A DNA stretch of 64,000 nt from Escherichia phage ECp13. The notes under the pieces were generated by a model. That model made no database searches. It had not been told where the DNA came from and saw only the letters and a list, made by a program, of their open reading frames with translations. The stretch lies in the sequence record PP274704.1; one strand, written 5' to 3'. This document shows positions 7,387-62,461 of the stretch, in pieces; the first letter of the stretch is position 1, and each line of letters opens with the position of its first letter. The position numbers and the translations under genes were made by a program.

Positions 7387-7410
7387 TGCTTCAGTTTCAT
7401 GTGTTATAAT
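7385..7410 (+). promoter_or_regulatory. middle promoter (MotA box ATGCTTCA plus TATAAT) for gene 1
   Basis: TGCTT box about 12 bp upstream of TATAAT at 7405-7410. Confidence 0.55.
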
Positions 7411-7435
7411 CTTAACTAAATTTGAGGAGAAACAT

Positions 7436-8160
7436 ATGAAACTAATCTTTTTAAGTGGTGTAAAGCGCAGTGGAAAAGATACTACTGCAGATTTTATCAT
7501 GAATAATTATTCTGCAGTTAAATATCAACTTGCTGGTCCTATTAAAGATGCATTGGCTTATGCATGGGGTGTATTTGCAGCAAACAATGATTATCCTTGC
7601 TTAACTCGTAAAGAGTTTGAAGGAATTGATTATGATCGTGAGACTAATTTAAATCTGACTAAATTAGAAGTAATTACGATTATGGAACAAGCATTTTGCT
7701 ATCTTAATAGTAAAAGCCCAATTAAAGGTGTGTTTGTTTTTGATGACGAAGGAAAAGAATCGGTTACTTTCGTAGCATTTAACAAGATTGCTGACGTTAT
7801 AAATAATATTGAAGATCAATGGTCAGTCCGTCGTCTGATGCAAGCCCTAGGTACGGATTTGATTGTTAATAACTTCGACCGCATGTATTGGGTAAAATTA
7901 TTTGCTTTAGATTATCTTGATAAATTTAACTCAGGTTATGATTATTATATCGTTCCTGATACTCGTCAAGATCATGAAATGGATGCGGCTAGGGCGATGG
8001 GTGCTACAGTAATTCATGTAGTTCGTCCTGGTCAAAAATCCAATGATATGCATATTACAGAAGCTGGATTGCCAATTCGTGATGGCGATTTAGTAATTAC
8101 AAACGATGGTTCTCTTGAAGAACTTTTTTCTAAAATTAAAAATACACTAAAGGTACTATA

Positions 8161-8161: not shown

Positions 8162-8905
<744 letters not shown>

Positions 8906-8929
8906 ATCAAAATTAATTAGGAAAATAAA

Positions 8930-9187
8930 ATGAAAACTTTCAAAGAGTTTGCTACAAAAACCACTATCACTGAATCTTCTCACGGTATGGAAGTAAAGCT
9001 TGGAATGGCTTTAGCTGAAGCTGAGCGTCTTTTCTCTCGTATTAAAGAACTTGCTGCTGCAGTCGATCCTTCATCTTTTAAAGGAGACCAAACTAAAGTT
9101 AAAGCACTTTTAGCATTATGCTCCGATGCAGGAGAAATTGCTAAAAATGGTTCTAAGATGAAGAAACGATTAGAAGATTTAAAATAA
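8930..9187 (+). CDS. internal protein (IP) with capsid targeting sequence, ipI locus
   Basis: 85 aa; N-terminus MKTFKEFATKTTITE resembles the T4 IP targeting sequence MKTYQEF..; position after 57B. Confidence 0.65.
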   Translation: MKTFKEFATKTTITESSHGMEVKLGMALAEAERLFSRIKELAAAVDPSSFKGDQTKVKALLALCSDAGEIAKNGSKMKKRLEDLK

Positions 9188-9235
9188 TTTCACAAAGTTG
9201 TTTACATAGGGTTTTAGTTGTGATACTATTACCCT
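9176..9235 (+). repeat. direct repeat copy B (early promoter cassette)
   Basis: Near-identical to 8846-8905. Confidence 0.75.
9200..9229 (+). promoter_or_regulatory. early promoter
   Basis: -35 GTTTACA, 17-bp spacer, -10 TACTAT. Confidence 0.65.
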
Positions 9236-9257
9236 ATCAACTACCGAGGAGAATAAA

Positions 9258-9443
9258 ATGAAACGTTGTGAATTAATTCGAAATGTTGCTATTGCAATTT
9301 CTGCTTCCGCTTTTAGTTTTTCAATGTTTGTTGGATTTATATGCGGATTATTGACTACAGCAGAAAATGTGTTTTCACTTGTAGTAGCATTTTTAATTGG
9401 TTTAATTGCTATCGTTATGGATAAAATTTCTAAAGGTGAATAG
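9258..9443 (+). CDS. small hydrophobic membrane protein
   Basis: 61-aa ORF, mostly hydrophobic; RBS GAGGAG upstream. Confidence 0.45.
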   Translation: MKRCELIRNVAIAISASAFSFSMFVGFICGLLTTAENVFSLVVAFLIGLIAIVMDKISKGE

Positions 9444-10883: not shown

Positions 10884-11195
10884 AACAAGAAACCGGGTCG
10901 CTACCGGTAAGTCGTCGGACTGATGTTCCCTGGAGTATAGTTCCTCCCACAGTTTTACTGTGTTCTGGTTCTTTACTATCACAGCTGAAACGGCGCACCG
11001 AATTATCGATTCGAGGAAATATCTTTGCCGTAAGCCGAGTAGCGTTTTTGACGGAACGTTCGGATATGGTCGAGATATGGCCTTTTAAAAATATTGAGTA
11101 GCGTCAACTGCTTAATAACCGGGTTCGAATCCCGGCGTTTCGTACAAACACTTGCCTTAGCAGGTGGAACCCCGACAAGGTTGCCGCAAGGCTTA
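10884..11195 (+). ncRNA. structured non-coding region of the tRNA cluster (possible small stable RNAs)
   Basis: No ORF; multiple hairpins; tRNA-like T-arm CCGGG/TTCGAAT/CCCGG at 11119-11135 with a pairing acceptor stem; T4 encodes small stable RNAs here. Confidence 0.25.
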
Positions 11196-11222
11196 GCCCC
11201 GACCGAAAGGTTGGGGCTTTTT
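11196..11222 (+). terminator. intrinsic terminator hairpin
   Basis: CCCCGACC-GAAA-GGTTGGGG followed by CTTTTT. Confidence 0.6.
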
Positions 11223-11224
11223 AG

Positions 11225-11232
11225 TATAAATA
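11225..11232 (+). promoter_or_regulatory. late promoter TATAAATA
   Basis: Exact TATAAATA 40 bp upstream of the IP-like gene at 11273. Confidence 0.55.
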
Positions 11233-11272: not shown

Positions 11273-11746
11273 ATGAAATCATATGCTCAATTTTTAAATG
11301 AAGCGGTGTTAAATGAAGCATCTAGCACCGAAATTCAAGCCGTCGCAAAAGCAGCCATTGCAGCGGGTAAATATTCCTATAAAGATGCTTCTGACGAATC
11401 ACGATTCCAATTTGCTCGCGACATGAAAGCAGAAGGATTTACGGGAAATGCGGTTAGTATGGCCTGGAAAAGTCTAGTTGCTACTGGCGCTGCTTTTGCA
11501 AAGGCTTCGGGTAAACCTGCTCCTAAAGCAGATCCTAAAGCTGCACAAGAAAAAAATATCGTTAAAGGAATTATCGCTAAATATGAAGCTATCCTTAAAG
11601 AGCTTTTAGTAATCAAAACCGAAGGCCAAAAGTTAGCCCGTGCTTATAGTTTCAAAGATAATCCACATGTTCACTCTCTTGAGTATGTTGAAGACATTCA
11701 AAAAATTATTAAAGACCGCATTTGGTCTGCTAAACAAATCAAATAA
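11273..11746 (+). CDS. internal-protein-like protein with capsid targeting sequence
   Basis: 157 aa; N-terminus MKSYAQFLNEAVLNE; late promoter upstream; flanked by near-identical hairpins. Confidence 0.65.
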   Translation: MKSYAQFLNEAVLNEASSTEIQAVAKAAIAAGKYSYKDASDESRFQFARDMKAEGFTGNAVSMAWKSLVATGAAFAKASGKPAPKADPKAAQEKNIVKGIIAKYEAILKELLVIKTEGQKLARAYSFKDNPHVHSLEYVEDIQKIIKDRIWSAKQIK

Positions 11747-11754
11747 CATTCTTA

Positions 11755-11782
11755 ACCCCGACCAAAAGGTTGGGGCTTTTTG
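11755..11782 (+). terminator. intrinsic terminator hairpin (near-duplicate of 11196-11222)
   Basis: CCCCGACC-AAAA-GGTTGGGG followed by CTTTTT. Confidence 0.6.
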
Positions 11783-11914
11783 GTATCTAGGCCTTTCTGG
11801 ACCTCTCTAGGCATCATTTAGTTTATACCCTTTATAATATATTATCCTATCTTTTAATTGCCCCTCCCTGCCCTAGAATTCCCTAAAAATTTTTAAAAAT
11901 TTTTTCACAAAACT

Positions 11915-11944
11915 ATTTACATCCCTGTTCTTCCATGGTACTAT
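11915..11944 (+). promoter_or_regulatory. early promoter
   Basis: -35 ATTTACA, 17-bp spacer, -10 TACTAT; AT-rich upstream tract. Confidence 0.6.
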
Positions 11945-11988
11945 ACAACTATCAACTACTGATACAGAAAAACAACTTGGAGAATGAA

Positions 11989-12252
11989 ATGGATAATTAC
12001 GGCGAACTGTTCAACTTCTTTATGAAATGCGTTTCAGAAGATTTCGGTCGTACAGTGAATGATATTAAAGTTATCGGTCCTGACCATCCGATGTTTGAAA
12101 CTTACGCAGTAATGGGTAATGAAGACGGACAGTGGTATACTGTAAAGGTTGTGATTAACATGTTCACAGCAGAAGGTTATGTTAAACTGTCTTCTAAAGT
12201 TTACCACGATAACGACGAAATCGCAGAAGAATATTTCAATAATATGAAATAA
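11989..12252 (+). CDS. hypothetical protein
   Basis: ATG at 11989 after RBS GGAGA; 87 aa; ORF-track start 11935 lies inside the promoter. Confidence 0.55.
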   Translation: MDNYGELFNFFMKCVSEDFGRTVNDIKVIGPDHPMFETYAVMGNEDGQWYTVKVVINMFTAEGYVKLSSKVYHDNDEIAEEYFNNMK

Positions 12253-12282
12253 GTTTACATAGGCTCATGATTGAGATATTAT
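12253..12282 (+). promoter_or_regulatory. early promoter with flanking inverted repeat
   Basis: -35 GTTTACA, -10 TATTAT; 8-bp inverted repeat AGGCTCAT/ATGAGCCT brackets the -10. Confidence 0.55.
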
Positions 12283-12308
12283 GAGCCTACAATTTGAGGA
12301 AAACCGTT

Positions 12309-12839
12309 ATGTCTCTTTATACCGAACTGAATGAAACTTCCGAAAAATCTTTTGATGATATCTTATCAATAATGCAAAAACAGGTATTAGAACAGCTTAG
12401 TGAAGCCGCAAGCAATGGGCACAAGGCTTGTCGAGTCCAAAGCCCACATCGCCGCATGTATGAACGCCCTCTTATTAATTGGCTAGAAAGCGAAGGTCTT
12501 ACAGTTAAGATTTGCCCTGCTAAATTTGATGTCCCACGTATTCTTAATATTTACTGGGATAAACCGGCTGAGAAATCGGTTGAGAAAAGTGACCCTTGGG
12601 TTGTTAATGTAAAAACATGTGACAGTGGATGCTCACTTGAGGTGTCTGCTGTAATTAAAGGCACTCATGGTGAAAAATCATGGGGTTGGCCTAGTAAAGA
12701 TAAAGAAATCGTGTTAAGTGTAAAAGCTACTAGTATTAGTACTCCTATAGCTAAAAGCATTATCGCCGCCGCCGTTGAAGAAGCTGAACGAATTTGTAAA
12801 ATTAAAAATAGTTTACATCTCTTAAATAGTATGATATAA
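12309..12839 (+). CDS. hypothetical protein
   Basis: 176 aa from ATG at 12309. Confidence 0.55.
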   Translation: MSLYTELNETSEKSFDDILSIMQKQVLEQLSEAASNGHKACRVQSPHRRMYERPLINWLESEGLTVKICPAKFDVPRILNIYWDKPAEKSVEKSDPWVVNVKTCDSGCSLEVSAVIKGTHGEKSWGWPSKDKEIVLSVKATSISTPIAKSIIAAAVEEAERICKIKNSLHLLNSMI

Positions 12840-12840
12840 T
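12811..12840 (+). promoter_or_regulatory. early promoter
   Basis: -35 GTTTACA, 17 bp, -10 TATAAT. Confidence 0.6.
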
Positions 12841-16293: not shown

Positions 16294-16323
16294 GTTTACT
16301 TTCTCCTAGAATTGTGATAGTAT
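16294..16323 (+). promoter_or_regulatory. early promoter
   Basis: -35 GTTTACT, about 17 bp, -10 TAGTAT. Confidence 0.55.
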
Positions 16324-16348
16324 ATTAACAGTTACTTGGAGGGATAAA

Positions 16349-19396: not shown

Positions 19397-19426
19397 GTTT
19401 ACTTTTCCTCTTGACTGTGGTATAAT
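19397..19426 (+). promoter_or_regulatory. early promoter
   Basis: -35 GTTTACT, 17 bp, -10 TATAAT. Confidence 0.6.
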
Positions 19427-19453
19427 TTTTCTATCAGTTAAGAGGAGAATAAC

Positions 19454-19915
19454 ATGACTATCAATACAGAAGTTTTTATCCGTCGAAATAAGCTTCGTCG
19501 TCACTTTGAGTCGGAGTTTCGTCAAATTAACAATGAGATTCGTGAGGCATCAAAAGCAGCAGGAGTCTCATCGTTTCATCTAAAATATTCTCAGCATCTT
19601 CTTGATCGTGCAATTCAACGGGAGATTGATGAGACATATGTTTTTGAATTATTCCACAAAATAAAAGACCATGTTTTAGAAGTTAATGAATTCCTGAGTA
19701 TGCCTCCGCGTCCTGATATTGACGAGGATTTTATTGATGGGGTTGAATATCGTCCTGGACGTTTAGAAATCACAGATGGAAATCTTTGGCTTGGATTTAC
19801 GGTTTGTAAACCTAATGCGAAGTTCAAAGACCCGTCGCTTCAATGTAGGATGGCAATTATCAACAGTCGTCGTTTACCAGGAAAGGCTTCTAAAGCAGTA
19901 ATTAAAACTCAATGA
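19454..19915 (+). CDS. regB: site-specific endoribonuclease RegB
   Basis: 153 aa; sequence and length match recalled T4 RegB. Confidence 0.88.
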   Translation: MTINTEVFIRRNKLRRHFESEFRQINNEIREASKAAGVSSFHLKYSQHLLDRAIQREIDETYVFELFHKIKDHVLEVNEFLSMPPRPDIDEDFIDGVEYRPGRLEITDGNLWLGFTVCKPNAKFKDPSLQCRMAIINSRRLPGKASKAVIKTQ

Positions 19916-24380: not shown

Positions 24381-24410
24381 GTTTACAAGTTGGCAAGGTT
24401 ATGGTATAGT
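24381..24410 (+). promoter_or_regulatory. early promoter
   Basis: -35 GTTTACA, 17 bp, -10 TATAGT; imperfect inverted repeat around the -10. Confidence 0.55.
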
Positions 24411-24542
24411 AATCTTGTCAACTGCCAAGGAGAAGAGAATGAAAGTTTTGTTTGTTGTGTATGTGATGATTCAATATAATTATCCAATGTTTACTTATAA
24501 TCTGGTGAACAACATTATTGATATTATTCAAAGGAGTATGTA

Positions 24543-27551: not shown

Positions 27552-27553
27552 TA

Positions 27554-27580
27554 GGGAGCCTTCGGGCTCCCTTTTTATTT
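27554..27580 (+). terminator. intrinsic terminator
   Basis: GGGAGCC-TTCG-GGCTCCC followed by TTTTTATTT. Confidence 0.7.
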
Positions 27581-27600
27581 CAAAATTTTTTCACAAAACG

Positions 27601-27630
27601 GTTTACAAGCATAAAGCTTTATGGTACTAT
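27601..27630 (+). promoter_or_regulatory. early promoter
   Basis: -35 GTTTACA, 17 bp, -10 TACTAT; shares leader with the 11.9k, 29.0k and 53.7k promoters. Confidence 0.6.
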
Positions 27631-27664
27631 ACAACTATCAACTGATACGGATTTGGAGAATAAA

Positions 27665-28633
27665 ATGAAAACTGTAACTATCAATAAGGGTATCTACTTC
27701 GGTAAAGAAATCTCTGGAACTTTTGAGCTCTTAGGCGAATGGTTCCCAGATAATGCTCCGGTAGATGCACAAGGAGATGGTAAAGTTTTTGTTGAAATTG
27801 ACGGTAAACGTCGCGGTGTTTGGGTTTACAAATCAGATATTTCATATGATGGTGTAAAGGTTGAAGAAGTTAAAGAATCGTATGAAGATATGAAAACCCG
27901 CATTAATAAAAGATTTAATGTTATGGGAATGATGACGAATGGTATTATTAATGGAAATATTCGTTCATTGATTATCTCTGGTGCAGCAGGTATTGGTAAA
28001 ACGTATTCTTTAGATAAAGCTTTAAATAAAGCAAATGATATTGGATACATTGAATATAAAAGTATTAATGGTAAAATCTCTGGTATTGGTCTTTATGAGC
28101 AGCTTTGGAATAATCGTGAAGAGAATTCTGTCCTTTTGATTGATGATGTGGATGTTTTCTCTGATATGGACATTCTTAATCTTCTAAAAGCCGCTCTGGA
28201 CACCGGAGAGACCCGTAAAGTCTGCTGGAGCACTGCGTCTTCTTACTTAGAAGAAAAAGGCATTGAGCGTGAGTTTGAATTTAAAGGAACGATTGTTTTT
28301 ATCACAAACGTTGACATTGACCGCGAATTAGACCGTGGTACTAAACTTGCTCCACATTTACAAGCATTAGTGTCCCGCTCGGTTTATTTGGATTTGGGTG
28401 TTCACACTAATGAAGAAATTATGGTCAGGGTTGAAGATGTTATTCTTTCAACTGACATGATGCAAAAGCGCGGTCTTTCTGATGAAGAAACTTATAAAGC
28501 ATTATCATGGATGAAAGTTAATGTTAATCGTTTACGCAATGTTTCACTGCGTACTGCTCTTTATCTTGCTGACTTTATTATGACCGACAAAAACGGTTGG
28601 GAAGAAATCGCTGAGGTTACTCTTCTGAAATAA
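27665..28633 (+). CDS. P-loop ATPase (AAA-like)
   Basis: 322 aa from ATG at 27665; Walker A GAAGIGKTYS, Walker B VLLIDDVD. Confidence 0.65.
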   Translation: MKTVTINKGIYFGKEISGTFELLGEWFPDNAPVDAQGDGKVFVEIDGKRRGVWVYKSDISYDGVKVEEVKESYEDMKTRINKRFNVMGMMTNGIINGNIRSLIISGAAGIGKTYSLDKALNKANDIGYIEYKSINGKISGIGLYEQLWNNREENSVLLIDDVDVFSDMDILNLLKAALDTGETRKVCWSTASSYLEEKGIEREFEFKGTIVFITNVDIDRELDRGTKLAPHLQALVSRSVYLDLGVHTNEEIMVRVEDVILSTDMMQKRGLSDEETYKALSWMKVNVNRLRNVSLRTALYLADFIMTDKNGWEEIAEVTLLK

Positions 28634-29039: not shown

Positions 29040-29069
29040 GTTTACAAGACTATTCCTCTGTGGTACTAT
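29040..29069 (+). promoter_or_regulatory. early promoter
   Basis: -35 GTTTACA, 17 bp, -10 TACTAT. Confidence 0.6.
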
Positions 29070-29097
29070 ACAACTATCAACTACGGAGGAACAGAAA

Positions 29098-29625
29098 ATG
29101 AACGCTAAAGATATTTTCAACTTGGTAAATTATAACGATGGTAAATTTAAATCTGAAGCACAAAGCAAGTTCTTTAATGACATCTCAATCGGAGGTGAAA
29201 TCACTGTTGATGGAGGACAAATTTACAAATCCCGTTGGAATTGGATCGTTATTATCGATGAGATCGGTATTGTAGAAATTTACAAGAATACGAATAAAAA
29301 TCGTACATTACACTGGTCTCGTGATACTAACGAACAGCACAAAAAGGATAAAGCATCTAAATTATCTCGTGTAACTCAAGAAGATATTGAGTTCATCAAG
29401 AAAGATATTTTAATGTATGATAACTTAATTGCTGAAGAGCAAGCTGTTATTGATAAATTTGACGAGATTAAAGCTTCTCGTGAAATTCCTGATTTTATGA
29501 AAGAATCAGTAAATGAACGATACTCTCTCATTTCAGAGCGTATTGAAACTTACAAAAAGCAAAGAGCTGAACGCCAAAATACTCTTCGGAAGTTTGAAGA
29601 ACGGTTAAAGACGGTACTCGCATAA
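29098..29625 (+). CDS. protein with C-terminal coiled coil
   Basis: 175 aa; RBS GGAGGA; C-terminal heptad-rich segment. Confidence 0.55.
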   Translation: MNAKDIFNLVNYNDGKFKSEAQSKFFNDISIGGEITVDGGQIYKSRWNWIVIIDEIGIVEIYKNTNKNRTLHWSRDTNEQHKKDKASKLSRVTQEDIEFIKKDILMYDNLIAEEQAVIDKFDEIKASREIPDFMKESVNERYSLISERIETYKKQRAERQNTLRKFEERLKTVLA

Positions 29626-36669: not shown

Positions 36670-38483
36670 CAATTGAAAAAGAAATTGAAGGATTGATTCA
36701 TAAAACTAATAAAGACCTTTTAAACGAGAATGCTAATAAAGATTCTCGTGTTTTTCCAACTCAACGGGACCTTATGGCTGGTATTGTGTCTAAACACATT
36801 GCCAAAAATATGGTCCCGTCTTTTATTATGAAAGCGCATGAAAGCGGAATTATTCATTTCCATGATATTGATTATTCCCCTGCTCTTCCATTTACTAATT
36901 GCTGTTTAGTAGATTTAAAAGGAATGCTTGAGAACGGATTTAAGCTCGGTAATGCGCAGATTGAAACTCCTAAATCAATCGGCGTTGCTACTGCAATTAT
37001 GGCACAAATTACTGCGCAGGTTGCTTCTCATCAATATGGCGGAACGACTTTTGCGAATGTAGATAAAGTACTTTCTCCTTATGTTAAACGCACCTATGCA
37101 AAACATATTGAGGATGCAGAAAAATGGCAAATCGCTGATGCGTTGAATTACGCCCAGTCTAAAACAGAAAAAGACGTATACGATGCATTCCAAGCTTATG
37201 AATATGAAGTAAATACTCTCTTTAGTTCAAACGGACAAACACCTTTTGTAACAATTACGTTTGGTACGGGAACTGACTGGACTGAACGAATGATTCAGAA
37301 AGCAATTCTGAAAAATCGTATTAAAGGCCTTGGTCGCGATGGGATAACTCCTATTTTCCCTAAGCTTGTTATGTTCGTTGAAGAGGGCGTCAATCTTTAT
37401 AAAGATGATCCGAACTATGATATTAAGCAGCTTGCTCTAGAGTGTGCAAGCAAAAGAATGTATCCTGATATTATTTCAGCTAAGAATAATAAAGCTATCA
37501 CCGGTTCATCTGTTCCTGTTTCTCCAATGGGTTGCCGCAGTTTCTTGAGTGTATGGAAAGATTCGACTGGTAATGAAATTCTTGATGGACGTAATAATCT
37601 TGGCGTTGTAACACTGAATCTTCCTCGCATTGCACTAGATTCTTATATTGGAACACAGTTCAATGAACAGAAATTTGCCGAATTGTTCAATGAACGAATG
37701 GATTTGTGTTTTGAAGCTTTGATGTGTAGAATTAGTTCCTTAAAAGGAGTTAAAGCGACTGTTGCTCCTATTCTTTACCAAGAAGGTGCATTCGGGGTTC
37801 GTCTTAAACCTGATGATGACATAATTGAGTTATTTAAAAACGGTAGAAGTTCAGTGTCTTTAGGATACATTGGTATTCACGAATTGAATATTCTTGTCGG
37901 TCGTGATATTGGACAGGAAATTTTAACTAAAATGAATGCTCGTCTTAAGCAGTGGACTGAAAGAACCGGTTTTGCTTTTAGCTTGTATTCTACTCCTGCT
38001 GAAAACCTTTGCTATCGCTTCTGTAAACTTGATACTGAAAAATATGGAAGTGTAAAAGATGTTACTGATAAAGGCTGGTACACTAATAGTTTCCATGTTT
38101 CAGTAGAAGAAAATATTACTCCATTTGAAAAGATTTCCCGCGAAGCTCCATATCATTTCATTGCGACAGGTGGTCACATTTCTTATGTTGAACTTCCTGA
38201 TATGAAAAATAACCTAAAAGGTCTTGAGGCTGTATGGGATTATGCTGCACAGCATTTAGATTATTTTGGCGTTAATATGCCAGTAGATAAGTGTTTTACA
38301 TGCGGAAGTACACATGAAATGACTCCTACTGAAAACGGATTTGTTTGTTCTATTTGTGGAGAAACTGATCCTAAAAAGATGAACACAATAAGAAGAACTT
38401 GTGGTTATTTGGGAAATCCGAATGAACGCGGATTTAATCTCGGCAAAAATAAAGAAATCATGCATAGGGTTAAACACCAATGA
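36666..38483 (+). CDS. nrdD: anaerobic ribonucleotide reductase NrdD (intronless)
   Basis: Continuous 605-aa ORF; length matches spliced T4 NrdD. Confidence 0.92.
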   Translation: MTIEKEIEGLIHKTNKDLLNENANKDSRVFPTQRDLMAGIVSKHIAKNMVPSFIMKAHESGIIHFHDIDYSPALPFTNCCLVDLKGMLENGFKLGNAQIETPKSIGVATAIMAQITAQVASHQYGGTTFANVDKVLSPYVKRTYAKHIEDAEKWQIADALNYAQSKTEKDVYDAFQAYEYEVNTLFSSNGQTPFVTITFGTGTDWTERMIQKAILKNRIKGLGRDGITPIFPKLVMFVEEGVNLYKDDPNYDIKQLALECASKRMYPDIISAKNNKAITGSSVPVSPMGCRSFLSVWKDSTGNEILDGRNNLGVVTLNLPRIALDSYIGTQFNEQKFAELFNERMDLCFEALMCRISSLKGVKATVAPILYQEGAFGVRLKPDDDIIELFKNGRSSVSLGYIGIHELNILVGRDIGQEILTKMNARLKQWTERTGFAFSLYSTPAENLCYRFCKLDTEKYGSVKDVTDKGWYTNSFHVSVEENITPFEKISREAPYHFIATGGHISYVELPDMKNNLKGLEAVWDYAAQHLDYFGVNMPVDKCFTCGSTHEMTPTENGFVCSICGETDPKKMNTIRRTCGYLGNPNERGFNLGKNKEIMHRVKHQ

Positions 38484-38950
38484 ATTATGATAGATTTTAT
38501 CCTTGCGATTTTGTGAATGGCCCTGGATGCAGGGTCGTTCTTTTCGTTACGGGGTGTTTGCATAAATGCGAAGGGTGTTATAATAAATCAACATGGAATG
38601 CTAGAAATGGCGTTCCATTCACTGGTGAAACACTAGAACAATTAATTGAATGTTTGAATAATGATTATATAGAAGGATTAACTATAACTGGAGGAGACCC
38701 TCTCTATCCTGATAACCGAGATGCTGTTCATTGCATTGTTCAAACAGTAAAAAATCTTTATCCAAATAAAAGCATTTGGTTGTGGACAGGATATAAGTTT
38801 GAAGATATTAAACAACTAGAAATGCTTAAATATGTTGATGTTATTATTGATGGGAAGTATGAGAAAAATCTTCCGACCAAAAAGCTGTGGCGAGGATCAG
38901 ATAATCAGCGACTTTGGTCAAATACCGATGGGGTGTGGAAACATGATTAA
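38480..38950 (+). CDS. nrdG: anaerobic RNR activating protein NrdG
   Basis: 156 aa; radical-SAM-like Cys cluster CLHKCEGC; ATGA overlap with nrdD. Confidence 0.9.
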   Translation: MNYDRFYPCDFVNGPGCRVVLFVTGCLHKCEGCYNKSTWNARNGVPFTGETLEQLIECLNNDYIEGLTITGGDPLYPDNRDAVHCIVQTVKNLYPNKSIWLWTGYKFEDIKQLEMLKYVDVIIDGKYEKNLPTKKLWRGSDNQRLWSNTDGVWKHD

Positions 38951-42975: not shown

Positions 42976-42999
42976 AAACCAAAACAATGAGGATATTAA

Positions 43000-44202
43000 A
43001 TGAAAGTATGCATTTTTATGGCTCGAGGTCTTGAAGGTTGCGGCGTAACTAAATTTTCTCTCGAGCAGCGTGATTGGTTTATTAAAAATGGTCATGAAGT
43101 AACTTTGGTTTATGCTAAAGATAAATCATTTACCCGTAATTGCGCGCATGATTATAAATCATTTTCAATTCCGGTTTTATTGGCAAAAGAATACGATAAA
43201 ACACTTAAGCTGGTAAATGATTGTGATATTCTAATTATCAATTCAGTTCCTGCTACTTCAGTCGAAGAAGACACTATTAATAACTATAAAAAAATTATTG
43301 ATAACATTAAACCTTCAGTTCGTGTTGTAGTTTATCAACATGACCATTCTTCTCTTTCTTTGCGCCGAAATTTGGGATTAGAAGAAACTGTTCGTCGAGC
43401 TGATGTTATTTTTAGTCATTCTGATAATGGCGATTTTAATAAAGTTTTGATGAAAGAATGGTATCCAGAAACAGTTTCTCTGTTTGATGATATTGAAGAA
43501 GCACCGACTGTATACAACTTTCAGCCTCCTATGGATATTGCGAAGGTTCGATCAACCTACTGGAAAGATGTTTCTGAAATTAATATGAATGTCAACCGTT
43601 GGATCGGTCGTACGACTACATGGAAAGGTTTTTATCAGATGTTTGATTTTCACGAAAAACATCTTAAACCTGCGGGATTAAGTACTATTATGGAAGGTCT
43701 GGAACGTTCTCCTGCGTTCATTCCTATTAAAGAAAAAGGAATTCCATACGAATATTATCGTCTTCATCAAGTAGACCAAATTAAAATTGCTCCTAATTTG
43801 CCGACGCAAATTCTCGACCGTTATGTAAATAGCGAAATGCTTGAACGCATGAGTAAATCCGGATTTGGTTATCAGCTGAGTAAGTTGGATAAAAAATATC
43901 TACAACGTTCTTTAGAATATACTCATCTCGAGCTTGGTGCGTGTGGAACAATTCCAGTATTTTGGAAATCTACTGGCGAAAATTTAAAATTCCGTGTTGA
44001 TAATACTCCGTTAATTTCTCATGATAGCGGTATCGTTTGGTTTGATGAAAATGACATGGAATCAACATTTGAGCGTATTAAAGAACTGTCATCTGACCGA
44101 AATCTTTATGACCGTGAACGCGAAAAAGCTTATGAATTTTTGTATCAGCATCAAGATTCAAGCTTCTGCTTTAAAGAACAGTTTGACATTATTACAAAAT
44201 AA
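43000..44202 (+). CDS. a-gt: DNA alpha-glucosyltransferase
   Basis: 400 aa; ...CIFMARGLEGCGVTKFSLEQRDWFIKNGHEVTLVYAKDKSF... matches recalled T4 alpha-gt. Confidence 0.92.
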   Translation: MKVCIFMARGLEGCGVTKFSLEQRDWFIKNGHEVTLVYAKDKSFTRNCAHDYKSFSIPVLLAKEYDKTLKLVNDCDILIINSVPATSVEEDTINNYKKIIDNIKPSVRVVVYQHDHSSLSLRRNLGLEETVRRADVIFSHSDNGDFNKVLMKEWYPETVSLFDDIEEAPTVYNFQPPMDIAKVRSTYWKDVSEINMNVNRWIGRTTTWKGFYQMFDFHEKHLKPAGLSTIMEGLERSPAFIPIKEKGIPYEYYRLHQVDQIKIAPNLPTQILDRYVNSEMLERMSKSGFGYQLSKLDKKYLQRSLEYTHLELGACGTIPVFWKSTGENLKFRVDNTPLISHDSGIVWFDENDMESTFERIKELSSDRNLYDREREKAYEFLYQHQDSSFCFKEQFDIITK

Positions 44203-50931: not shown

Positions 50932-53628
50932 ATGAAAGAATTTTATATCTCTATCGAAACAGTCGGAAATAACATTGTTGAGCGTTATATTGATGAAAAT
51001 GGAAAGGAACGTACTCGTGAAGTAGAATATCTTCCGACTATGTTTAGGCATTGTAAGGAAGAGTCAAAATACAAAGACATTTATGGTAAAAATTGTGCTC
51101 CTCAAAAATTTCCATCAATGAAAGATGCACGAGACTGGATGAAGCGAATGGAAGACATCGGTCTCGAAGCTCTTGGTATGAACGATTTTAAACTCGCTTA
51201 TATCAGTGATACATATGGTTCAGAAATTGTTTATGACCGAAAATTTGTTCGTGTAGCTAACTGTGACATTGAGGTTACTGGCGATAAATTTCCTGACCCA
51301 ATGAAAGCAGAATATGAAATTGATGCTATCACTCATTACGATTCAATTGACGACCGTTTTTACGTCTTTGATTTGTTGAATTCAATGTACGGTTCAGTAT
51401 CAAAATGGGATGCAAAGTTAGCTGCTAAGCTTGACTGTGAAGGTGGTGATGAAGTTCCTCAAGAAATTCTTGACCGAGTAATTTATATGCCATTCGATAA
51501 TGAGCGTGATATGCTCATGGAATATATTAATCTCTGGGAACAGAAACGACCTGCTATTTTTACCGGTTGGAATATTGAGGGATTTGACGTTCCGTATATT
51601 ATGAATCGCGTTAAAATGGTTCTCGGTGAACGCAGTATGAAACGCTTCTCTCCAATCGGTCGAGTAAAATCTAAACTAATTCAAAATATGTACGGTAGCA
51701 AAGAAATTTATTCTATTGATGGCGTATCTATTCTTGATTATTTAGATTTGTACAAGAAATTCGCATTTACTAATTTGCCATCGTTCTCTTTGGAATCAGT
51801 TGCTCAACATGAAACCAAAAAAGGTAAATTGCCGTACGATGGTCCTATTAATAAACTTCGTGAAACTAATCATCAACGATACATTAGTTATAACATCATT
51901 GACGTAGAATCAGTTCAAGCAATTGATAAAATTCGTGGGTTTATCGATCTAGTTTTAAGTATGTCTTATTACGCTAAAATGCCTTTTTCTGGTGTAATGA
52001 GTCCTATTAAAACTTGGGATGCTATTATTTTTAACTCACTGAAAGGTGAACATAAGGTTATTCCTCAACAAGGTTCGCACGTTAAACAGAGTTTTCCAGG
52101 TGCATTTGTGTTTGAACCTAAACCGATTGCTCGTCGATACATTATGAGTTTTGACTTGACGTCTCTGTATCCTAGCATTATTCGTCAGGTTAACATTAGT
52201 CCTGAGACTATTCGCGGGCAGTTTAAAGTTCATCCAATTCATGAATATATCGCAGGAACAGCTCCTAAGCCAAGTGATGAATATTCTTGCTCTCCGAATG
52301 GATGGATGTATGATAAGCACCAAGAAGGTATCATTCCAAAGGAAATCGCTAAAGTATTTTTCCAGCGTAAAGATTGGAAAAAGAAAATGTTCGCGGAAGA
52401 AATGAATGCCGAAGCTATTAAAAAGATTATTATGAAAGGTGCAGGGTCTTGCTCAACTAAACCAGAAGTTGAACGATATGTTAAGTTCAGTGATGATTTC
52501 TTAAACGAATTATCGAATTACACCGAATCTGTTCTTAATAGTCTGATCGAAGAATGTGAAAAAGCAGCTACACTTGCTAACACAAATCAGCTGAACCGTA
52601 AAATTCTTATTAACAGTCTTTATGGTGCTCTTGGTAATATTCATTTCCGTTACTATGATTTGCGAAATGCTACTGCTATCACAATTTTCGGTCAAGTCGG
52701 TATTCAGTGGATTGCTCGCAAAATTAATGAATATCTGAATAAAGTATGTGGAACTAATGGTGAAGATTTCATCGCAGCAGGTGATACTGATTCGGTATAT
52801 GTTTGTGTAGATAAAGTTATTGAAAAAGTAGGTCTTGATCGCTTTAAAGAACAAAATGATTTAGTTGAATTCATGAATCAGTTTGGTAAGAAAAAGATGG
52901 AACCTATGATTGATGTTGCATATCGTGAGTTATGTGATTATATGAATAACCGCGAGCATCTGATGCATATGGACCGTGAAGCTATTTCTTGCCCTCCGCT
53001 TGGTTCAAAGGGTGTTGGTGGATTTTGGAAAGCGAAAAAACGTTATGCTCTGAACGTTTATGATATGGAAGATAAGCGATTTGCCGAACCGCATCTAAAA
53101 ATCATGGGTATGGAAACTCAGCAGAGCTCAACACCAAAAGCAGTACAAGAAGCTCTCGAAGAAAGTATTCGTCGTATTCTTCAGGAAGGCGAAGAGTCTG
53201 TCCAAGAATACTACAAGAACTTTGAGAAAGAATATCGTCAACTTGACTATAAAGTTATTGCTGAAGTAAAAACTGCGAACGATATAGCGAAATATGATGA
53301 TAAAGGTTGGCCAGGATTTAAATGCCCGTTCCATATTCGTGGCGTACTAACTTATCGTCGAGCTGTTAGCGGTTTAGGTGTAGCTCCAATTTTGGATGGA
53401 AATAAGGTAATGGTTCTTCCATTACGTGAAGGAAATCCATTTGGTGATAAGTGCATTGCTTGGCCATCAGGCACAGAACTTCCAAAAGAAATTCGTTCTG
53501 ACGTACTGTCTTGGATTGACTACTCAACTTTGTTCCAAAAATCGTTTGTTAAACCGCTTGCGGGTATGTGTGAATCGGCAGGTATGGACTATGAGGAAAA
53601 AGCTTCGTTAGACTTCCTGTTTGGCTGA
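50932..53628 (+). CDS. 43: DNA polymerase gp43
   Basis: 898 aa as T4 gp43; family B polymerase and exonuclease motifs. Confidence 0.95.
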   Translation: MKEFYISIETVGNNIVERYIDENGKERTREVEYLPTMFRHCKEESKYKDIYGKNCAPQKFPSMKDARDWMKRMEDIGLEALGMNDFKLAYISDTYGSEIVYDRKFVRVANCDIEVTGDKFPDPMKAEYEIDAITHYDSIDDRFYVFDLLNSMYGSVSKWDAKLAAKLDCEGGDEVPQEILDRVIYMPFDNERDMLMEYINLWEQKRPAIFTGWNIEGFDVPYIMNRVKMVLGERSMKRFSPIGRVKSKLIQNMYGSKEIYSIDGVSILDYLDLYKKFAFTNLPSFSLESVAQHETKKGKLPYDGPINKLRETNHQRYISYNIIDVESVQAIDKIRGFIDLVLSMSYYAKMPFSGVMSPIKTWDAIIFNSLKGEHKVIPQQGSHVKQSFPGAFVFEPKPIARRYIMSFDLTSLYPSIIRQVNISPETIRGQFKVHPIHEYIAGTAPKPSDEYSCSPNGWMYDKHQEGIIPKEIAKVFFQRKDWKKKMFAEEMNAEAIKKIIMKGAGSCSTKPEVERYVKFSDDFLNELSNYTESVLNSLIEECEKAATLANTNQLNRKILINSLYGALGNIHFRYYDLRNATAITIFGQVGIQWIARKINEYLNKVCGTNGEDFIAAGDTDSVYVCVDKVIEKVGLDRFKEQNDLVEFMNQFGKKKMEPMIDVAYRELCDYMNNREHLMHMDREAISCPPLGSKGVGGFWKAKKRYALNVYDMEDKRFAEPHLKIMGMETQQSSTPKAVQEALEESIRRILQEGEESVQEYYKNFEKEYRQLDYKVIAEVKTANDIAKYDDKGWPGFKCPFHIRGVLTYRRAVSGLGVAPILDGNKVMVLPLREGNPFGDKCIAWPSGTELPKEIRSDVLSWIDYSTLFQKSFVKPLAGMCESAGMDYEEKASLDFLFG

Positions 53629-53640
53629 TAGAAAAAATCT

Positions 53641-53662
53641 AGGGACCTCCGGGTCCCTTTTT
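53641..53662 (+). terminator. intrinsic terminator
   Basis: AGGGACC-TCCG-GGTCCCT followed by TTTTT. Confidence 0.7.
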
Positions 53663-53745
53663 CATACAAGTAATATAAATCTATACTTAGGAAAAATAGA
53701 TGATTCTAGGTCCTGTAAATTCATTAAAAATTTTTTCACAAAACT

Positions 53746-53775
53746 GTTTACAAGACTGTTCCTCTGTGGTACTAT
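53746..53775 (+). promoter_or_regulatory. early promoter
   Basis: -35 GTTTACA, 17 bp, -10 TACTAT; near-identical to the 29040 cassette. Confidence 0.6.
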
Positions 53776-53809
53776 TACTCTATCAACCAATACAAATTTG
53801 GAGAATGAA

Positions 53810-54190
53810 ATGAAAATTGCTATTTTGGTTATTGCATTGGGTCTTACTGGTTGTGTAGCTCAAGGACCAGTAGTAAATCAGTCTGATGCAGGAAAAATTG
53901 TAAACTGTTCAAGCAAATTTTATAATCCTAACGTCAAGTGTTATAAAGAAGCTCCAAAACAGACAGTAGAACAAATGCAGGCGAATTTTGACGAAGCTAT
54001 TCGTCCAGATGAATCTGCTCAAGCATATCGTAATTCAGATGTAATTACACGCGAAGAAAAAATTGAAAACTACTGCGCCGAACTTTGGGCTAATTGGGCT
54101 AATAATTACCAATGGCGAACTGGTAAAAATGCTCCAATGGAGTATGTAGTGAATTCTTATAATTCATGTGTAAAAAATTTGACTAAGTGA
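53810..54190 (+). CDS. putative lipoprotein
   Basis: 126 aa from ATG at 53810; lipobox LTGC after hydrophobic signal. Confidence 0.55.
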   Translation: MKIAILVIALGLTGCVAQGPVVNQSDAGKIVNCSSKFYNPNVKCYKEAPKQTVEQMQANFDEAIRPDESAQAYRNSDVITREEKIENYCAELWANWANNYQWRTGKNAPMEYVVNSYNSCVKNLTK

Positions 54191-54602: not shown

Positions 54603-55343
54603 ATGATTAATGACTCTTTGACAGTTGAAGAAACTCGTCTTCATTTGGGAATTGCGTTAAAGGAAAAAGATTTCGTAATTGATAAAACTGGCGTTAAAAC
54701 TATTGAAATTATTGGCGCATCATTTGTAGCAGATGAACCGTTTATTTTTGGCGCTCTTAATGATGAATACATTCAGCGTGAACTTGAATGGTATAAATCT
54801 AAAAGTTTGTTTGTTAAAGATATTCCGGGTGAAACACCGAAGATTTGGCAACAGGTAGCATCTTCTAAAGGCGAAATTAACTCGAATTATGGTTGGGCCA
54901 TCTGGTCAGAAGATAACTATGCCCAGTATGATATGTGTTTAGCTGAACTTGGTCAAAATCCTGATTCTCGACGTGGTATCATGATTTATACTCGTCCATC
55001 CATGCAGTTTGACTACAATAAAGATGGTATGTCAGATTTCATGTGTACGAATACAGTACAGTACCTGATTCGTGATAAGAAAGTCAATGCAGTAGTAAGC
55101 ATGCGTTCAAATGACGTGGTCTTCGGATTCCGTAATGATTATGCATGGCAAAAATACGTACTAGATAAATTAGTATCTGATTTGAATGCAGGTGATTCAA
55201 CTCGTCAGTATAAAGCAGGTTCCATTATATGGAATGTCGGGAGCCTTCATGTGTATTCCCGTCATTTTTATTTGGTTGACCATTGGTGGAAAACTGGCGA
55301 AACTCATATTGCGAAAAAAGATTATAACGGTGAGTGGAAATGA
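54603..55343 (+). CDS. 42: dCMP hydroxymethylase gp42
   Basis: 246 aa as T4 gp42. Confidence 0.92.
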   Translation: MINDSLTVEETRLHLGIALKEKDFVIDKTGVKTIEIIGASFVADEPFIFGALNDEYIQRELEWYKSKSLFVKDIPGETPKIWQQVASSKGEINSNYGWAIWSEDNYAQYDMCLAELGQNPDSRRGIMIYTRPSMQFDYNKDGMSDFMCTNTVQYLIRDKKVNAVVSMRSNDVVFGFRNDYAWQKYVLDKLVSDLNAGDSTRQYKAGSIIWNVGSLHVYSRHFYLVDHWWKTGETHIAKKDYNGEWK

Positions 55344-56182
55344 TTCAATTCGTAATTCCAAGCTATCAACGCGTAGGGGCAGTTTCTGCCCTTGATATGT
55401 TTCCGACTGATTATGAACCTCATATTGTAGTACGTGAACACGAAGAAAAAGCTTATTATGACGCTTACGGGTCTAGAGCTAAAATTATAACTATTCCTGA
55501 TGATGTTAATGGAATTGCTGGTACTCGTAAAGCAATTACTGATATGTATGCAGGTCAACGAATTTGGATGATTGATGATGATACTACTATTCGTATGAGT
55601 TCAATGCGAAAGAAAGATGATCGTCGCTGCGTAGATAAAATTAATCAGTTAACTCGTGAACAGTTCTATGAATTGATTCAATACGTTGAAGATGCCATGG
55701 ATTGCGGGTATTATCACGGTCATGCTCGTCTACCTATTTTTAAAATTACTTCATCTTGGGGTAATTATCGTGAAAATTCATATGGATTCACGAATACTTG
55801 GTATGACCTCGGGAAACTTACAACAGAACAAATTGGGTATGGAAAAATTGATTTATGCGAAGATATGTATGCATTTCTCAATTTAATTAATCAAGGTTAT
55901 CCGCATTTGGCCTTGTTCAAATATCTGGTTGTGTCTGGAAAAGCACAGGCTCCTGGCGGATGTAGTTCAATTCGTAGTAATTCAAAACATAATAGAGCTC
56001 TTGAGCAAATCAATAGAGAGTTTCCAGAGCAAGCTCGTTGGAAAACATCGAATATCGAAAAGAGAAAATCGTTGGGTGAAGAAGACGAGCCATTAAAAGT
56101 TCTTCGCATGTGTGTTTCGCGCAAAGAAAAATCAGAAGCATTTCATAAGTTTAATGCTATTCATCCAATAGCAGTTGATTAA
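55340..56182 (+). CDS. DNA glycosyltransferase with DXD motif at the beta-gt locus (not T4-type beta-gt)
   Basis: 280 aa from ATG at 55340; DXD-like RIWMIDDDTTIR; unrelated to the recalled 351-aa T4 beta-gt. Confidence 0.7.
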   Translation: MIQFVIPSYQRVGAVSALDMFPTDYEPHIVVREHEEKAYYDAYGSRAKIITIPDDVNGIAGTRKAITDMYAGQRIWMIDDDTTIRMSSMRKKDDRRCVDKINQLTREQFYELIQYVEDAMDCGYYHGHARLPIFKITSSWGNYRENSYGFTNTWYDLGKLTTEQIGYGKIDLCEDMYAFLNLINQGYPHLALFKYLVVSGKAQAPGGCSSIRSNSKHNRALEQINREFPEQARWKTSNIEKRKSLGEEDEPLKVLRMCVSRKEKSEAFHKFNAIHPIAVD

Positions 56183-56259
56183 TGCCTAAATTTATTGTGT
56201 TATAATTACTCTATCTTTAACCAGTGAGGAAAATATAATGTTGCCTATGGAAAAAATGA

Positions 56260-57441
56260 ATGTCTATTGCAGATTTAAAATCCCGTTTGATTAAAGCTTC
56301 CACTTCTAAAATGACTGCTGAACTGACTACATCTAAATTCTTTAATGAAAAGGATGTAATCCGTACAAAAATTCCAATGCTTAATATCGCTATTTCTGGT
56401 GCGATTGATGGTGGTATGCAGTCTGGTTTAACCATTTTTGCAGGTCCTTCTAAACACTTTAAATCAAATATGTCTTTGACTATGGTTGCGGCGTATTTGA
56501 ACAAATATCCTGACGCGGTATGTCTATTCTATGATAGCGAATTTGGTATTACTCCAGCTTATTTGCGATCCATGGGAGTTGACCCGGAACGAGTAATTCA
56601 TACACCAATCCAGTCAGTTGAACAGCTGAAAATTGATATGGTGAATCAGCTTGAAGCTATTGAGCGTGGTGAAAAAGTTATTGTATTCATCGACTCAATT
56701 GGTAATATGGCTTCTAAGAAAGAAACGGAAGATGCCTTGAATGAAAAATCTGTGGCAGATATGACTCGTGCTAAATCACTGAAGTCATTATTCCGTATTG
56801 TTACTCCTTATTTTAGTATTAAAAACATTCCATGCGTTGCGGTTAACCATACAATTGAAACAATTGAAATGTTTAGTAAAACCGTGATGACAGGTGGTAC
56901 AGGCGTAATGTATTCGGCTGATACCGTATTCATTATCGGTAAGCGCCAGATTAAAGATGGTTCTGATCTTCAGGGGTATCAATTTGTTCTAAATGTAGAA
57001 AAATCTCGTACCGTTAAAGAAAAAAGTAAATTCTTTATTGATGTTAAATTTGACGGTGGTATCGATCCTTATTCTGGATTGTTAGATATGGCTCTTGAAT
57101 TAGGATTTGTGGTAAAACCTAAAAATGGCTGGTATGCTCGTGAATTTCTTGACGAAGAAACCGGCGAGATGATTCGCGAAGAAAAATCTTGGCGTGCAAA
57201 AGATACCAACTGCACTACATTCTGGGGTCCTTTATTTAAGCATCAGCCATTCCGAGACGCTATTAAACGTGCTTATCAGTTAGGTGCTATTGATAGTAAT
57301 GAAATTGTTGAAGCTGAAGTTGATGAATTGATTAACTCAAAGGTTGAAAAATTTAAATCTCCAGAAAGTAAAAGTAAATCAGCAGCTGATTTAGAAACTG
57401 ACCTAGATCAGTTAAGTGATATGGAAGAATTTAATGAATAA
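56260..57441 (+). CDS. uvsX: RecA-like recombinase UvsX
   Basis: 393 aa; Walker A GPSKHFKS; matches recalled T4 UvsX. Confidence 0.93.
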   Translation: MSIADLKSRLIKASTSKMTAELTTSKFFNEKDVIRTKIPMLNIAISGAIDGGMQSGLTIFAGPSKHFKSNMSLTMVAAYLNKYPDAVCLFYDSEFGITPAYLRSMGVDPERVIHTPIQSVEQLKIDMVNQLEAIERGEKVIVFIDSIGNMASKKETEDALNEKSVADMTRAKSLKSLFRIVTPYFSIKNIPCVAVNHTIETIEMFSKTVMTGGTGVMYSADTVFIIGKRQIKDGSDLQGYQFVLNVEKSRTVKEKSKFFIDVKFDGGIDPYSGLLDMALELGFVVKPKNGWYAREFLDEETGEMIREEKSWRAKDTNCTTFWGPLFKHQPFRDAIKRAYQLGAIDSNEIVEAEVDELINSKVEKFKSPESKSKSAADLETDLDQLSDMEEFNE

Positions 57442-59215: not shown

Positions 59216-59244
59216 TTTACAAGCTGACAAGACTATGGTATAGT
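59215..59244 (+). promoter_or_regulatory. early promoter with inverted repeat around -10
   Basis: -35 GTTTACA overlapping gene 41 stop; 9-bp inverted repeat ACAAGACTA/TAGTCTTGT brackets the -10. Confidence 0.55.
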
Positions 59245-59273
59245 AGTCTTGTTGGTTAAATGAGGAGATTGTT

Positions 59274-61830: not shown

Positions 61831-61901
61831 ATGTCCTCCTTATTGCTTTATATATTTATTGTATAATTAATCTACTAACCCATGAATTGAAAGGAAAAAT
61901 A

Positions 61902-62419: not shown

Positions 62420-62453
62420 TATAAACGACGGCTTAAAAGCTGTGAGAATTTAT

Positions 62454-62461
62454 TATAAATA
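62454..62461 (+). promoter_or_regulatory. late promoter TATAAATA for soc
   Basis: Exact TATAAATA about 30 bp upstream of soc. Confidence 0.6.

Follow-up and report, generated by a model that had tools for sequence, protein, structure and literature searches.

Four copies of an early promoter and leader unit

The window that we analysed, a stretch of 64,000 nucleotides from Escherichia phage ECp13 (PP274704.1), was 90-98% identical to Tequatrovirus (T4-like) genomes as a whole, and the region around the four copies described below was 96-98% identical to many of them. Roughly 550 Tequatrovirus genomes gave matches. In reverse orientation the window ran colinear with T4, from ~83.4 kb to 14 kb of the T4 map, and by these comparisons it is a T4-like (Tequatrovirus) genome. 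An earlier note on this DNA had described a promoter and 5′ leader that recur at 11936-11991, 27623-27667, 29063-29100 and 53768-53812, and all four copies were found there. The genes that lie directly downstream are the orthologues of T4 e.8 (ATG at 11989), nrdC.10 (27665), nrdC.8 (29098) and imm.1 (53810), all on the + strand. In T4 these four genes are all early at the RNA and protein levels, as determined by time-resolved omics (PMC9697503 supplement). By analogy with these orthologues, the four copies would drive immediate-early genes with the host polymerase alone. The window also carries the regB gene (19454-19915, + strand; Pfam REGB_T4, E = 1.4e-68).

The first copy, in front of the e.8 homologue, opens with an A/T-rich UP-element region (11885-11914) that includes TTTTTTCACAAAAC, a string common to three copies upstream of the -35 hexamer. 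The core promoter (11915-11944) consists of the -35 hexamer ATTTAC (11915-11920), in which A replaces the G at -36, an 18-nt spacer that ends in TGG (extended -10) and the -10 hexamer TACTAT (11939-11944). It is followed by a start-site box, ACAACTATCAAC (11945-11956), with the predicted +1 at the A in position 11951, and by the Shine-Dalgarno (SD) sequence GGAGAATGAAA, which is at the same time a RegB/S1-type site (10/11) and occupies 11979-11991 together with the ATG. The second copy, in front of the nrdC.10 homologue, has its UP region, -35 GTTTAC (27601-27606), spacer, TGG and -10 TACTAT (27625-27630) at 27574-27630, the same box ACAACTATCAAC at 27631-27642 (predicted +1 at 27637), and the SD and RegB/S1 site GGAGAATAAAA (11/11) with the ATG at 27655-27667. 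An intrinsic terminator, formed by a UUCG-loop hairpin and a T run (27553-27582), lies directly upstream of it. The third copy, in front of the nrdC.8 homologue, comprises -35 GTTTAC, spacer, TGG and -10 TACTAT (29064-29069) at 29040-29069, its upstream region lying within the 3′ end of the nrdC.9 homologue; the box ACAACTATCAAC follows at 29070-29081 (predicted +1 at 29076), and the SD GGAGGAACAGA, with 8/11 positions of the RegB/S1 consensus, extends with the ATG over 29085-29100. In the fourth copy, in front of the imm.1 homologue, the UP region, -35 GTTTAC (53746-53751), a spacer of the nrdC.8 type, TGG and -10 TACTAT (53770-53775) occupy 53724-53775, a variant box TACTCTATCAAC lies at 53776-53787 (predicted +1 at 53782), and the SD and RegB/S1 site is again GGAGAATGAAA (10/11), at 53800-53812 with the ATG. 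A terminator-like hairpin read from the sequence, AGGGACC-TCCG-GGTCCCT with a T run (53641-53662), stands 3′ of gene 43 and 5′ of this copy. All these elements are on the + strand.

Three of the copies share the 20-mer GGTACTATACAACTATCAAC, which occurs exactly at 11937, 27623 and 29062 on the + strand, against an expectation of 0.02 in shuffled sequence. The fourth copy (53768) differs from it at 4/20 positions (GGTACTATTACTCTATCAAC) with its architecture unchanged. Copies 1, 2 and 4 contain the 3′ motif TTGGAGAAT(G/A)AAATG, and copy 3 carries ACGGAGGAACAGAAAATG in its place, so that the small changes reported between copies understate its divergence. A shorter string, CTATCAAC, occurs six times in the window, and five of these occurrences are placed exactly 5 nt past the -10 hexamer of an early promoter. 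This position revealed a fifth, partial copy at 9200-9260 (+ strand), on the trna.4 side of the ipI locus, which reads GTTTAC-N18-TACTAT-TACCCTATCAAC, then GGAGAATAAAA (11/11) and an ATG. The sixth occurrence (55363) is within a coding sequence, has no promoter and was treated as chance.

A single class of early-type promoters

A scan of the window returned 19 early-type promoters, all of them on the + strand and of a single geometry, GTTTAC-N18-TAnnAT; a count of four or more loci was thus right. A weight matrix trained on positions -42 to -7 likewise gave 19 matches on the + strand and none on the - strand. Downstream of nearly all 19 promoters there was an SD sequence and an ATG. The four copies are near-consensus members of these predicted early-type promoters. 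The -35 hexamer GTTTAC at -36 to -31 is exact in copies 2, 3 and 4 and in 18/19 members of the class, and the N18 spacing and the TGG-TACTAT arrangement (an extended -10 of the TGn type) are found in all four copies. Copies 1, 2 and 4 have the UP element AAAATTTTTTCACAAAAC, and in copy 3 the end of nrdC.9 supplies another A/T-rich stretch. Across the class, position -40 is an A in 18/19 members, and positions -57 to -41 follow an A/T pattern. With ATTTAC for GTTTAC, the promoter of copy 1 may be weaker than the others.

This organization is that of T4 early promoters, described as of the 'UP/-35/TGn/-10' type with 'additional regions of consensus' (Hinton 2010, PMC2988021) and as having an extended consensus (Pe; Liebig & Rüger 1989, J Mol Biol 208:517). 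The promoters analysed here are like Pe in the UP element, the -35 GTTTAC, the TGn, the -10 and the extra consensus, as well as in their site 5′ of early genes on the early strand, and the four loci are direct orthologues of the T4 e.8, nrdC.10, nrdC.8 and imm.1 promoters. Nothing essential differs; copy 1 has A for G at -36, and the imm.1 copy carries another spacer and leader allele. The extended consensus of T4 early promoters was reportedly also treated by Wilkens and Rüger in 1994 and 1996.

The promoter consensus continues through the predicted start site

A per-column information profile of the class displayed the A at -40, GTTTAC, T-G-T-G at -17 to -14 and the -10 hexamer, followed by a weaker signal from -3 to +7. 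In the 15 promoters outside the four copies, this residual signal consisted of C at -3, C at -2, T at -1 (10/15), A at +1 (11/15) and T at +7. As the earlier note had proposed, conservation is therefore not limited to the hexamers and extends past the -10. The +1 was predicted by rule, as the A located 7 nt past the -10; the same 7-nt rule agrees with the 34 mapped T4 middle-promoter starts when the list of Hinton 2010 is laid on the T4 sequence. Transcripts from the predicted +1 would begin 5′-AUCAAC.

The C of the box is always 5 nt past the -10 hexamer, and the distance between box and ATG at the five CTATCAAC sites is 24, 40, 30, 24 and 30 nt. A fixed register to the -10 and a variable distance to the ATG indicate that the register is set by the promoter and not by the ribosome binding site. 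The proposal that the 'ACTATCAAC box' is a separate operator in the leader does not fit this arrangement, since the box is fixed to the -10, lies 24-40 nt from the ATG and is found class-wide in T4 and RB69.

We then compared promoter classes for the ATCA tetranucleotide at +1 to +4. It was present in 7/19 early promoters of the window, in 4/6 T4 early promoters outside the region orthologous to the window (140-169 kb; denB, ndd.4, motA and the frd region) and in 5/15 RB69 promoters, a count that allows for the N17 spacer of many of them. In contrast, only one of the 34 mapped T4 middle promoters had ATCA (Fisher p = 0.002 and 0.0008 for the early versus middle contrasts). Downstream of the -10, middle promoters displayed only a purine at +1, with polymerase and -10 contacts as in the early class. 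In distant (RB69-type) e.8 orthologues, TACTAT-agacCTATCAAA was kept, with a spacer and a distal leader unrelated to the T4 type, and RB69 early promoters of other, unrelated genes had the box in the same register. Judged by this distribution, the 'ACTATCAAC box' belongs to the early class alone and forms the start-site part of its extended promoter consensus.

The box could act either at the DNA, in start selection or escape, or as the RNA 5′ end. If AUCAAC... were an RNA element of early mRNAs, it could influence stability, capping status or the loading of ribosomes or S1. All transcripts made from these promoters would carry the box as their 5′ end (+1 to +6), the box is restricted to the early class, and early mRNAs are under special decay control (PMC3014915). 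The conserved stretch, however, includes the untranscribed positions -3 to -1, and the box involves no structure or known RNA motif. The fixed register to the -10 is what a DNA start-site element predicts, although an RNA 5′-end element would give the same register. On balance we consider an RNA function of this kind improbable. An optimisation for NAD capping was also considered and was rejected; at -2, -1 and +2 the box goes against the published capping consensus.

The box is confined to early promoters, and middle promoters lack it although sigma-70 contacts their -10 in the same way. It might therefore serve regulation as a handle of its own, as the target of the rapid shut-off of early promoters or as the selector for their stimulation by Alt-modified polymerase. 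Shut-off and Alt stimulation of T4 early promoters stand without a sequence-level explanation in the reviews (Hinton 2010, PMC2988021; Uzan & Miller 2010, PMC3014915), and the DksA paper reported no discriminator motif for early promoters. We regard such a handle as a long shot. A literature search for the box motif string returned only primer matches, and a search for an RNA-seq 5′-end map of T4 found none. The preferred reading is that of a start-site part of the early-promoter consensus.

The Shine-Dalgarno sequences match the RegB/S1 consensus

The earlier note had suggested RegB cleavage at the GGAG of the leaders. According to Durand 2006 (PMC1702504), efficient cleavage by RegB with S1 requires an 11-nt single-stranded site, GGAGRAYARAA, in which an A-rich tract comes after an invariant GGA and G4, with GGAGAAUAAAA as the T4 optimum, and the leader motif GGAGAAT[AG]AAA agrees with both. 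Copy 2 fits the consensus at 11/11 positions, copies 1 and 4 at 10/11 and copy 3 at 8/11, and with regB itself in the window the suggestion of RegB sites gains strength for copies 1, 2 and 4. Matches of at least 10/11 were found in 5/13 promoter-proximal GGAG SD sequences against 0/14 others (Fisher p = 0.016); all the SD sequences of the window that match to this extent have the same offset to the ATG and serve the gene that an early promoter transcribes first. The SD of regB, GGAGAATAACA (19444), is among them and is near-identical to the motif of the cassettes. In T4, the SD of regB is a known autoregulatory cut site (Uzan & Miller 2010, PMC3014915).

When folded from the predicted +1, the leaders had minimum free energies of 0 to -2.6 kcal/mol (z >= -0.3) and their SD an unpaired probability of 0.41-0.84, and are thus unstructured, as a single-stranded RegB site requires. 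In agreement with T4 RegB/S1 sites, the predicted sites of the cassettes have GGAG and an A-rich tract, are intergenic and single-stranded and lie in early transcripts. Each is the SD of the gene that directly follows an early promoter, and the phage encodes regB. Copy 3 differs from the T4 sites, with its weaker fit (8/11) and with a hairpin that masks it in read-through RNA. Of the four loci, nrdC.8, the orthologue of copy 3, is the one confirmed by name as a mapped T4 site; Durand 2006 (PMC1702504) gives it as 'moderately cleaved', which is consistent with the weaker match of copy 3 and with its masking by a hairpin. The GGAG sites of the copies are well supported as predicted RegB targets, and a link between such cassettes and RegB is already textbook T4 biology.

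The earlier note had also considered a translational operator, for which nothing spoke. A RegA operator around the AUG would have in its favour that the AUG surroundings are A/U-rich with a 5′ A-tract (GAAUAAAAUGAAA), in loose likeness to the description of RegA sites. When leaders and RegA sequences were compared by eye, A-richness was the sole likeness and UUGUU was absent; the RegA SELEX sequence AAAAUUGUUAUGUAA and the listed natural sites had no match in the leaders. Moreover, the leader motif is wholly explained by the RegB/S1 consensus, the distance from box to AUG varies over 24-40 nt, and e.8, nrdC.10, nrdC.8 and imm.1 are not among the RegA targets named in the available part of PMC3014915. 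A RegA operator is therefore highly improbable, and we read the leader motif as a predicted RegB/S1 site.

Promoter spacers as arms of predicted hairpins in read-through transcripts

In a separate observation, the spacer between -35 and -10 was complementary to the start or leader region, leaving the -10 in the loop, at approximately 8 of 18 early promoters (about 40%). Cognate spacer/leader duplexes were stronger than non-cognate ones both in the window (means of -9.9 versus -7.2 kcal/mol; permutation p = 4.5e-4) and in RB69 (-10.4 versus -7.0; p = 5e-5). Folding placed the SD in the 3′ arm at regB, nrdC.8, denV and gene 1, where it would be masked in read-through transcripts; at regB, the unpaired probability of the SD dropped from 0.94 to 0.00 when the transcript started upstream. 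Among the four copies only nrdC.8 behaved in this way, and no SD masking was found at copies 2 and 4. The hairpin predicted in read-through RNA of copy 3 (29053-29091, + strand) has the spacer segment UUCCUCUGUGGU (29053-29064) as its 5′ arm and ACUACGGAGGAA (29080-29091), with the SD, as its 3′ arm. Its stem of 12 bp (z = -4.7) leaves the -10 and the box in the loop, and with an upstream start the unpaired probability of the SD fell from 0.77 to 0.15. Since one copy out of four has the hairpin, hairpins do not explain the repeat.

At regB, three lineages retained the hairpin, each with a stem sequence of its own. Single-sequence folds masked the SD of nrdC.8 in two lineages whose 5′ arms differ in register, and this difference in register accounts for the fact that RNAalifold returned no consensus hairpin on the nrdC.8 orthologues. 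A DNA cruciform was considered as well, but G·U pairs occur in the stems, and the differences between the window and T4 give G·U and not mismatches, which makes a cruciform less likely; the G·U pairs argue for the predicted promoter-enclosing hairpins being RNA structures. Masking of initiation by structure is known for T4 e, soc, 49 and I-TevI (PMC3014915), and stem-loops are known for PeSL (PMC2839356). As in e, soc, 49 and I-TevI, the SD at nrdC.8, regB, denV and gene 1 is paired in transcripts started upstream and free in those from the promoter inside the hairpin. In those known cases, however, the promoter in the hairpin is late (or middle), whereas here it is early and the 5′ arm is the -35/-10 spacer itself. 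The reviewed T4 and PeSL literature does not mention early-promoter spacers as hairpin arms at these four loci. At masked loci, translation and RegB sensitivity would depend on the promoter from which the transcript originates.

Exchange between cassettes

The exact 20-mer stands 5′ of at least nine genes across T4-like contigs: e.8, nrdC.10, nrdC.8, imm.1, an extra ORF, genes of the denB locus, ndd.4, motA and others. These contigs join spacer types to leader types in different combinations. Unlike the imm.1 copy of the window, the T4 imm.1 promoter is of the e.8 type in its spacer end and start region and of the nrdC.10 type in its distal leader. Several related contigs lack a cassette at imm.1, where it is carried instead by an extra ORF upstream. 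In one phage (L045) the core of nrdC.8 is replaced by a core of the trna.4 type with flanks that remain nrdC.8-type. The cassettes of RB69 share their own core variant across loci, AGACC rather than ACAAC, which is a pattern expected of concerted evolution. Homology breakpoints between the window and T4 fell within cassettes in 5/42 cases, compared with 2.7% of the sequence (p = 0.005, under a null without a breakpoint preference for intergenic DNA), and cassettes flank the variable genes at 8930-9180 and 12309-12840. To a large extent, the long identity thus reflects exchange between paralogous cassettes rather than a shared control element.

These data bear on whether the box is functional at all. 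It could be an accident of ancestry, recent duplicates or gene conversion having left too little time to diverge, with only the UP element, -35, TGn and -10 functional. Long identical runs do cover positions without consensus value: T4 frd.3 equals nrdC.10 from about -58 to +3, the whole non-consensus spacer included, and diverges at +4. Leader segments are likewise common to e.8 and motA, and to nrdC.10, denB and imm.1, and the cassette alleles are mosaic. Against this, RB69-type orthologues still carry the box after complete divergence of their spacers and distal leaders, early promoters without other flanking similarity are enriched in it, and it is absent from middle promoters (ATCA in 1/34). 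We therefore judge an accident of ancestry to be unlikely. Conservation of the box could stem from selection or from gene conversion; among close orthologues in IMG/VR, with few T4-like contigs and 5-11 loci per gene, per-site constraint has no power to separate positions. A start-site part of the early-promoter consensus, in cassettes that also exchange, remains the reading that we favour.

Mobile units of this kind have been described. The PeSL cassettes of RB49 and phi1 (Arbiol 2010, PMC2839356) are, like the cassettes here, units of ~100 bp that reach from an A/T region to the start codon. They share with the T-even internal-protein elements (Repoila 1994, as cited in Arbiol 2010, PMC2839356) the properties of being repeated in plastic regions, serving as recombination substrates and bounding variable genes. 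PeSL stem-loops are integral to the cassette, act as terminators or attenuators and often lie between or across -35 and -10; the hairpin of copy 3 has a similar position. The cassettes of ECp13 nonetheless use a promoter of the T4 early type and are probably unrelated in sequence to the RB49 PeSLs, whose consensus is of the sigma-70-like TTGACA type with GGGG...CCCC stems (Arbiol 2010, PMC2839356); the same paper treats the T-even elements as analogues, not homologues, of PeSLs. In addition, the promoter contains a stem-loop in only one of the four copies, and copies 2 and 4 each have a separate terminator upstream. Copy 3 alone has a strong hairpin across its promoter, and the pairing in copy 1 is weak.

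A repeated unit, probably for immediate-early expression

Taken together, these results make it very probable that the copies in this T4-like phage are complete immediate-early expression units of ~100 bp, each of which joins an early promoter to a RegB-type ribosome binding site, and that selection and exchange keep them alike. Unmodified host sigma-70 RNA polymerase would read the promoter through its A/T-rich UP element, -35 GTTTAC, fixed spacer, TGG and TACTAT, in a consensus that would run on through the start site as C-2 T-1 A+1 T+2 C+3 A+4 A+5. The resulting leader would be short (22-38 nt) and unstructured, and its ribosome binding site, GGAG and an A-rich tract 6 nt before the AUG, would also be an optimal 11-nt RegB target in the presence of ribosomal protein S1. 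Right after infection, the first gene would be transcribed and translated in a burst; as RegB, itself expressed from a similar cassette, accumulates, a cut at GG^AG would inactivate the message. The likeness of the copies would have two causes, selection for the extended consensus and repeated recombination or gene conversion, the latter reassorting spacer, core and leader modules and moving cassettes to other genes.

The repetition is genuine, but it is an ordinary feature that has long been described (Liebig & Rüger 1989; Durand 2006; Repoila 1994; Arbiol 2010). The earlier reading of the locus is partly supported, being right about RegB and wrong about a leader operator. Current understanding is unchanged, with the promoter and ribosome binding site consensus dating from 1989, the RegB/S1 site from 2006 and the recombination modules from 1994 and 2010. 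Two smaller points may be of specialist value, a start-site box specific to the early class and promoter spacers that often double as the 5′ arm of conserved hairpins. For the annotation of T4-like genomes, the cassettes mark immediate-early transcription starts, predict the first cistrons that RegB would inactivate and flag the places where genes are swapped.

Gene content relative to T4

Compared with T4, the phage lacks ipII, ipIII, the nrdD intron with I-TevII, mobC, mobB, the dam methylase gene and segF, and the sites of T4 genes missing from the phage were placed at 16338-16345, 37201-37204, 38480-38500, 42984-43009, 61841-61862 and 62382-62454 of the window. At 55325-56272, a different sequence stands where T4 has beta-gt and segA.

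A 157-aa ORF on the + strand (11273-11746) has no T4 counterpart at the same site. Its N-terminus, MKSYAQFLNEA, is similar to MKTYQEFIAEA, the capsid-targeting sequence with which T4 IPII and IPIII begin. The ORF is preceded by the late-promoter motif TATAAATA at 11224-11231 and lies between the two copies of a 36-nt direct repeat that comprises a terminator hairpin (11192-11227 and 11751-11786). The ORF may represent an internal-protein-like gene beyond the two classical IP loci.

Variation and apparent exchange at early-promoter cassettes

Two genes, at the ipI locus (8930-9180) and at e.7 (12309-12840), were found to be wholly unlike their T4 counterparts. Early-promoter cassettes lie on both flanks of each of these regions, and the breakpoints of homology with T4 fall within the cassettes.

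Variation was also seen in single cassettes. The T4 frd.3 promoter (NC_000866, around position 146875; locus L060 of the comparison) is identical to the nrdC.10 promoter (window 27574-27640) from about -58 to +3, an identity that takes in the non-consensus spacer AAGCATAAAGCTTTATGG, and the two sequences diverge from +4. The pattern suggests that a tract ending at the start site was cleanly duplicated or converted. In the nrdC.8 cassette of locus L045 (IMGVR_UViG_2974787500_000001), the -10 element and start-site core have been swapped for TATTATTACCCTATCAAC, the type of core found at window 9200, and the spacer and leader are still of the nrdC.8 type; the swap resembles a short conversion patch. 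The e.8 copy (window 11915) carries ATTTAC in place of GTTTAC. The other 18 promoters of the window all have G at -36, as do the e.8 cassettes examined in T4 and in related contigs. The ATTTAC has the appearance of a private change, possibly a weakening one.

From gene 43 to imm.1, the intervening sequence is polymorphic (window 53620-53812; loci L004, L006, L007, L008, L028, L029 and L031). In several related phages, the cassette belongs to an additional small membrane-protein ORF (MKIVMGCLAV...), which is followed by a promoterless imm.1 with an ordinary GAGGAAATTATTATG start. The same additional stretch, of about 250 bp, is present in many GenBank records.

Hairpins enclosing early promoters

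Early promoters were also seen enclosed by hairpins, in which the spacer between the -35 and -10 elements is paired to sequence of the start or leader region, leaving the -10 element in the loop (window 7393-7443, 8880-8909, 12260-12289, 16300-16344, 19403-19449, 24388-24423, 29053-29091 and 59222-59257). Pairing of cognate arms exceeded non-cognate pairing in the window (p = 4.5e-4) and likewise among the early promoters of RB69 (p = 5e-5), and a comparison of three lineages revealed covariation in the regB stem. At regB, nrdC.8, denV and gene 1, the stem contains the Shine-Dalgarno sequence; because of this location, translation of these four genes, or access of RegB to their RNA, would be confined to transcripts that start at the proximal promoter.
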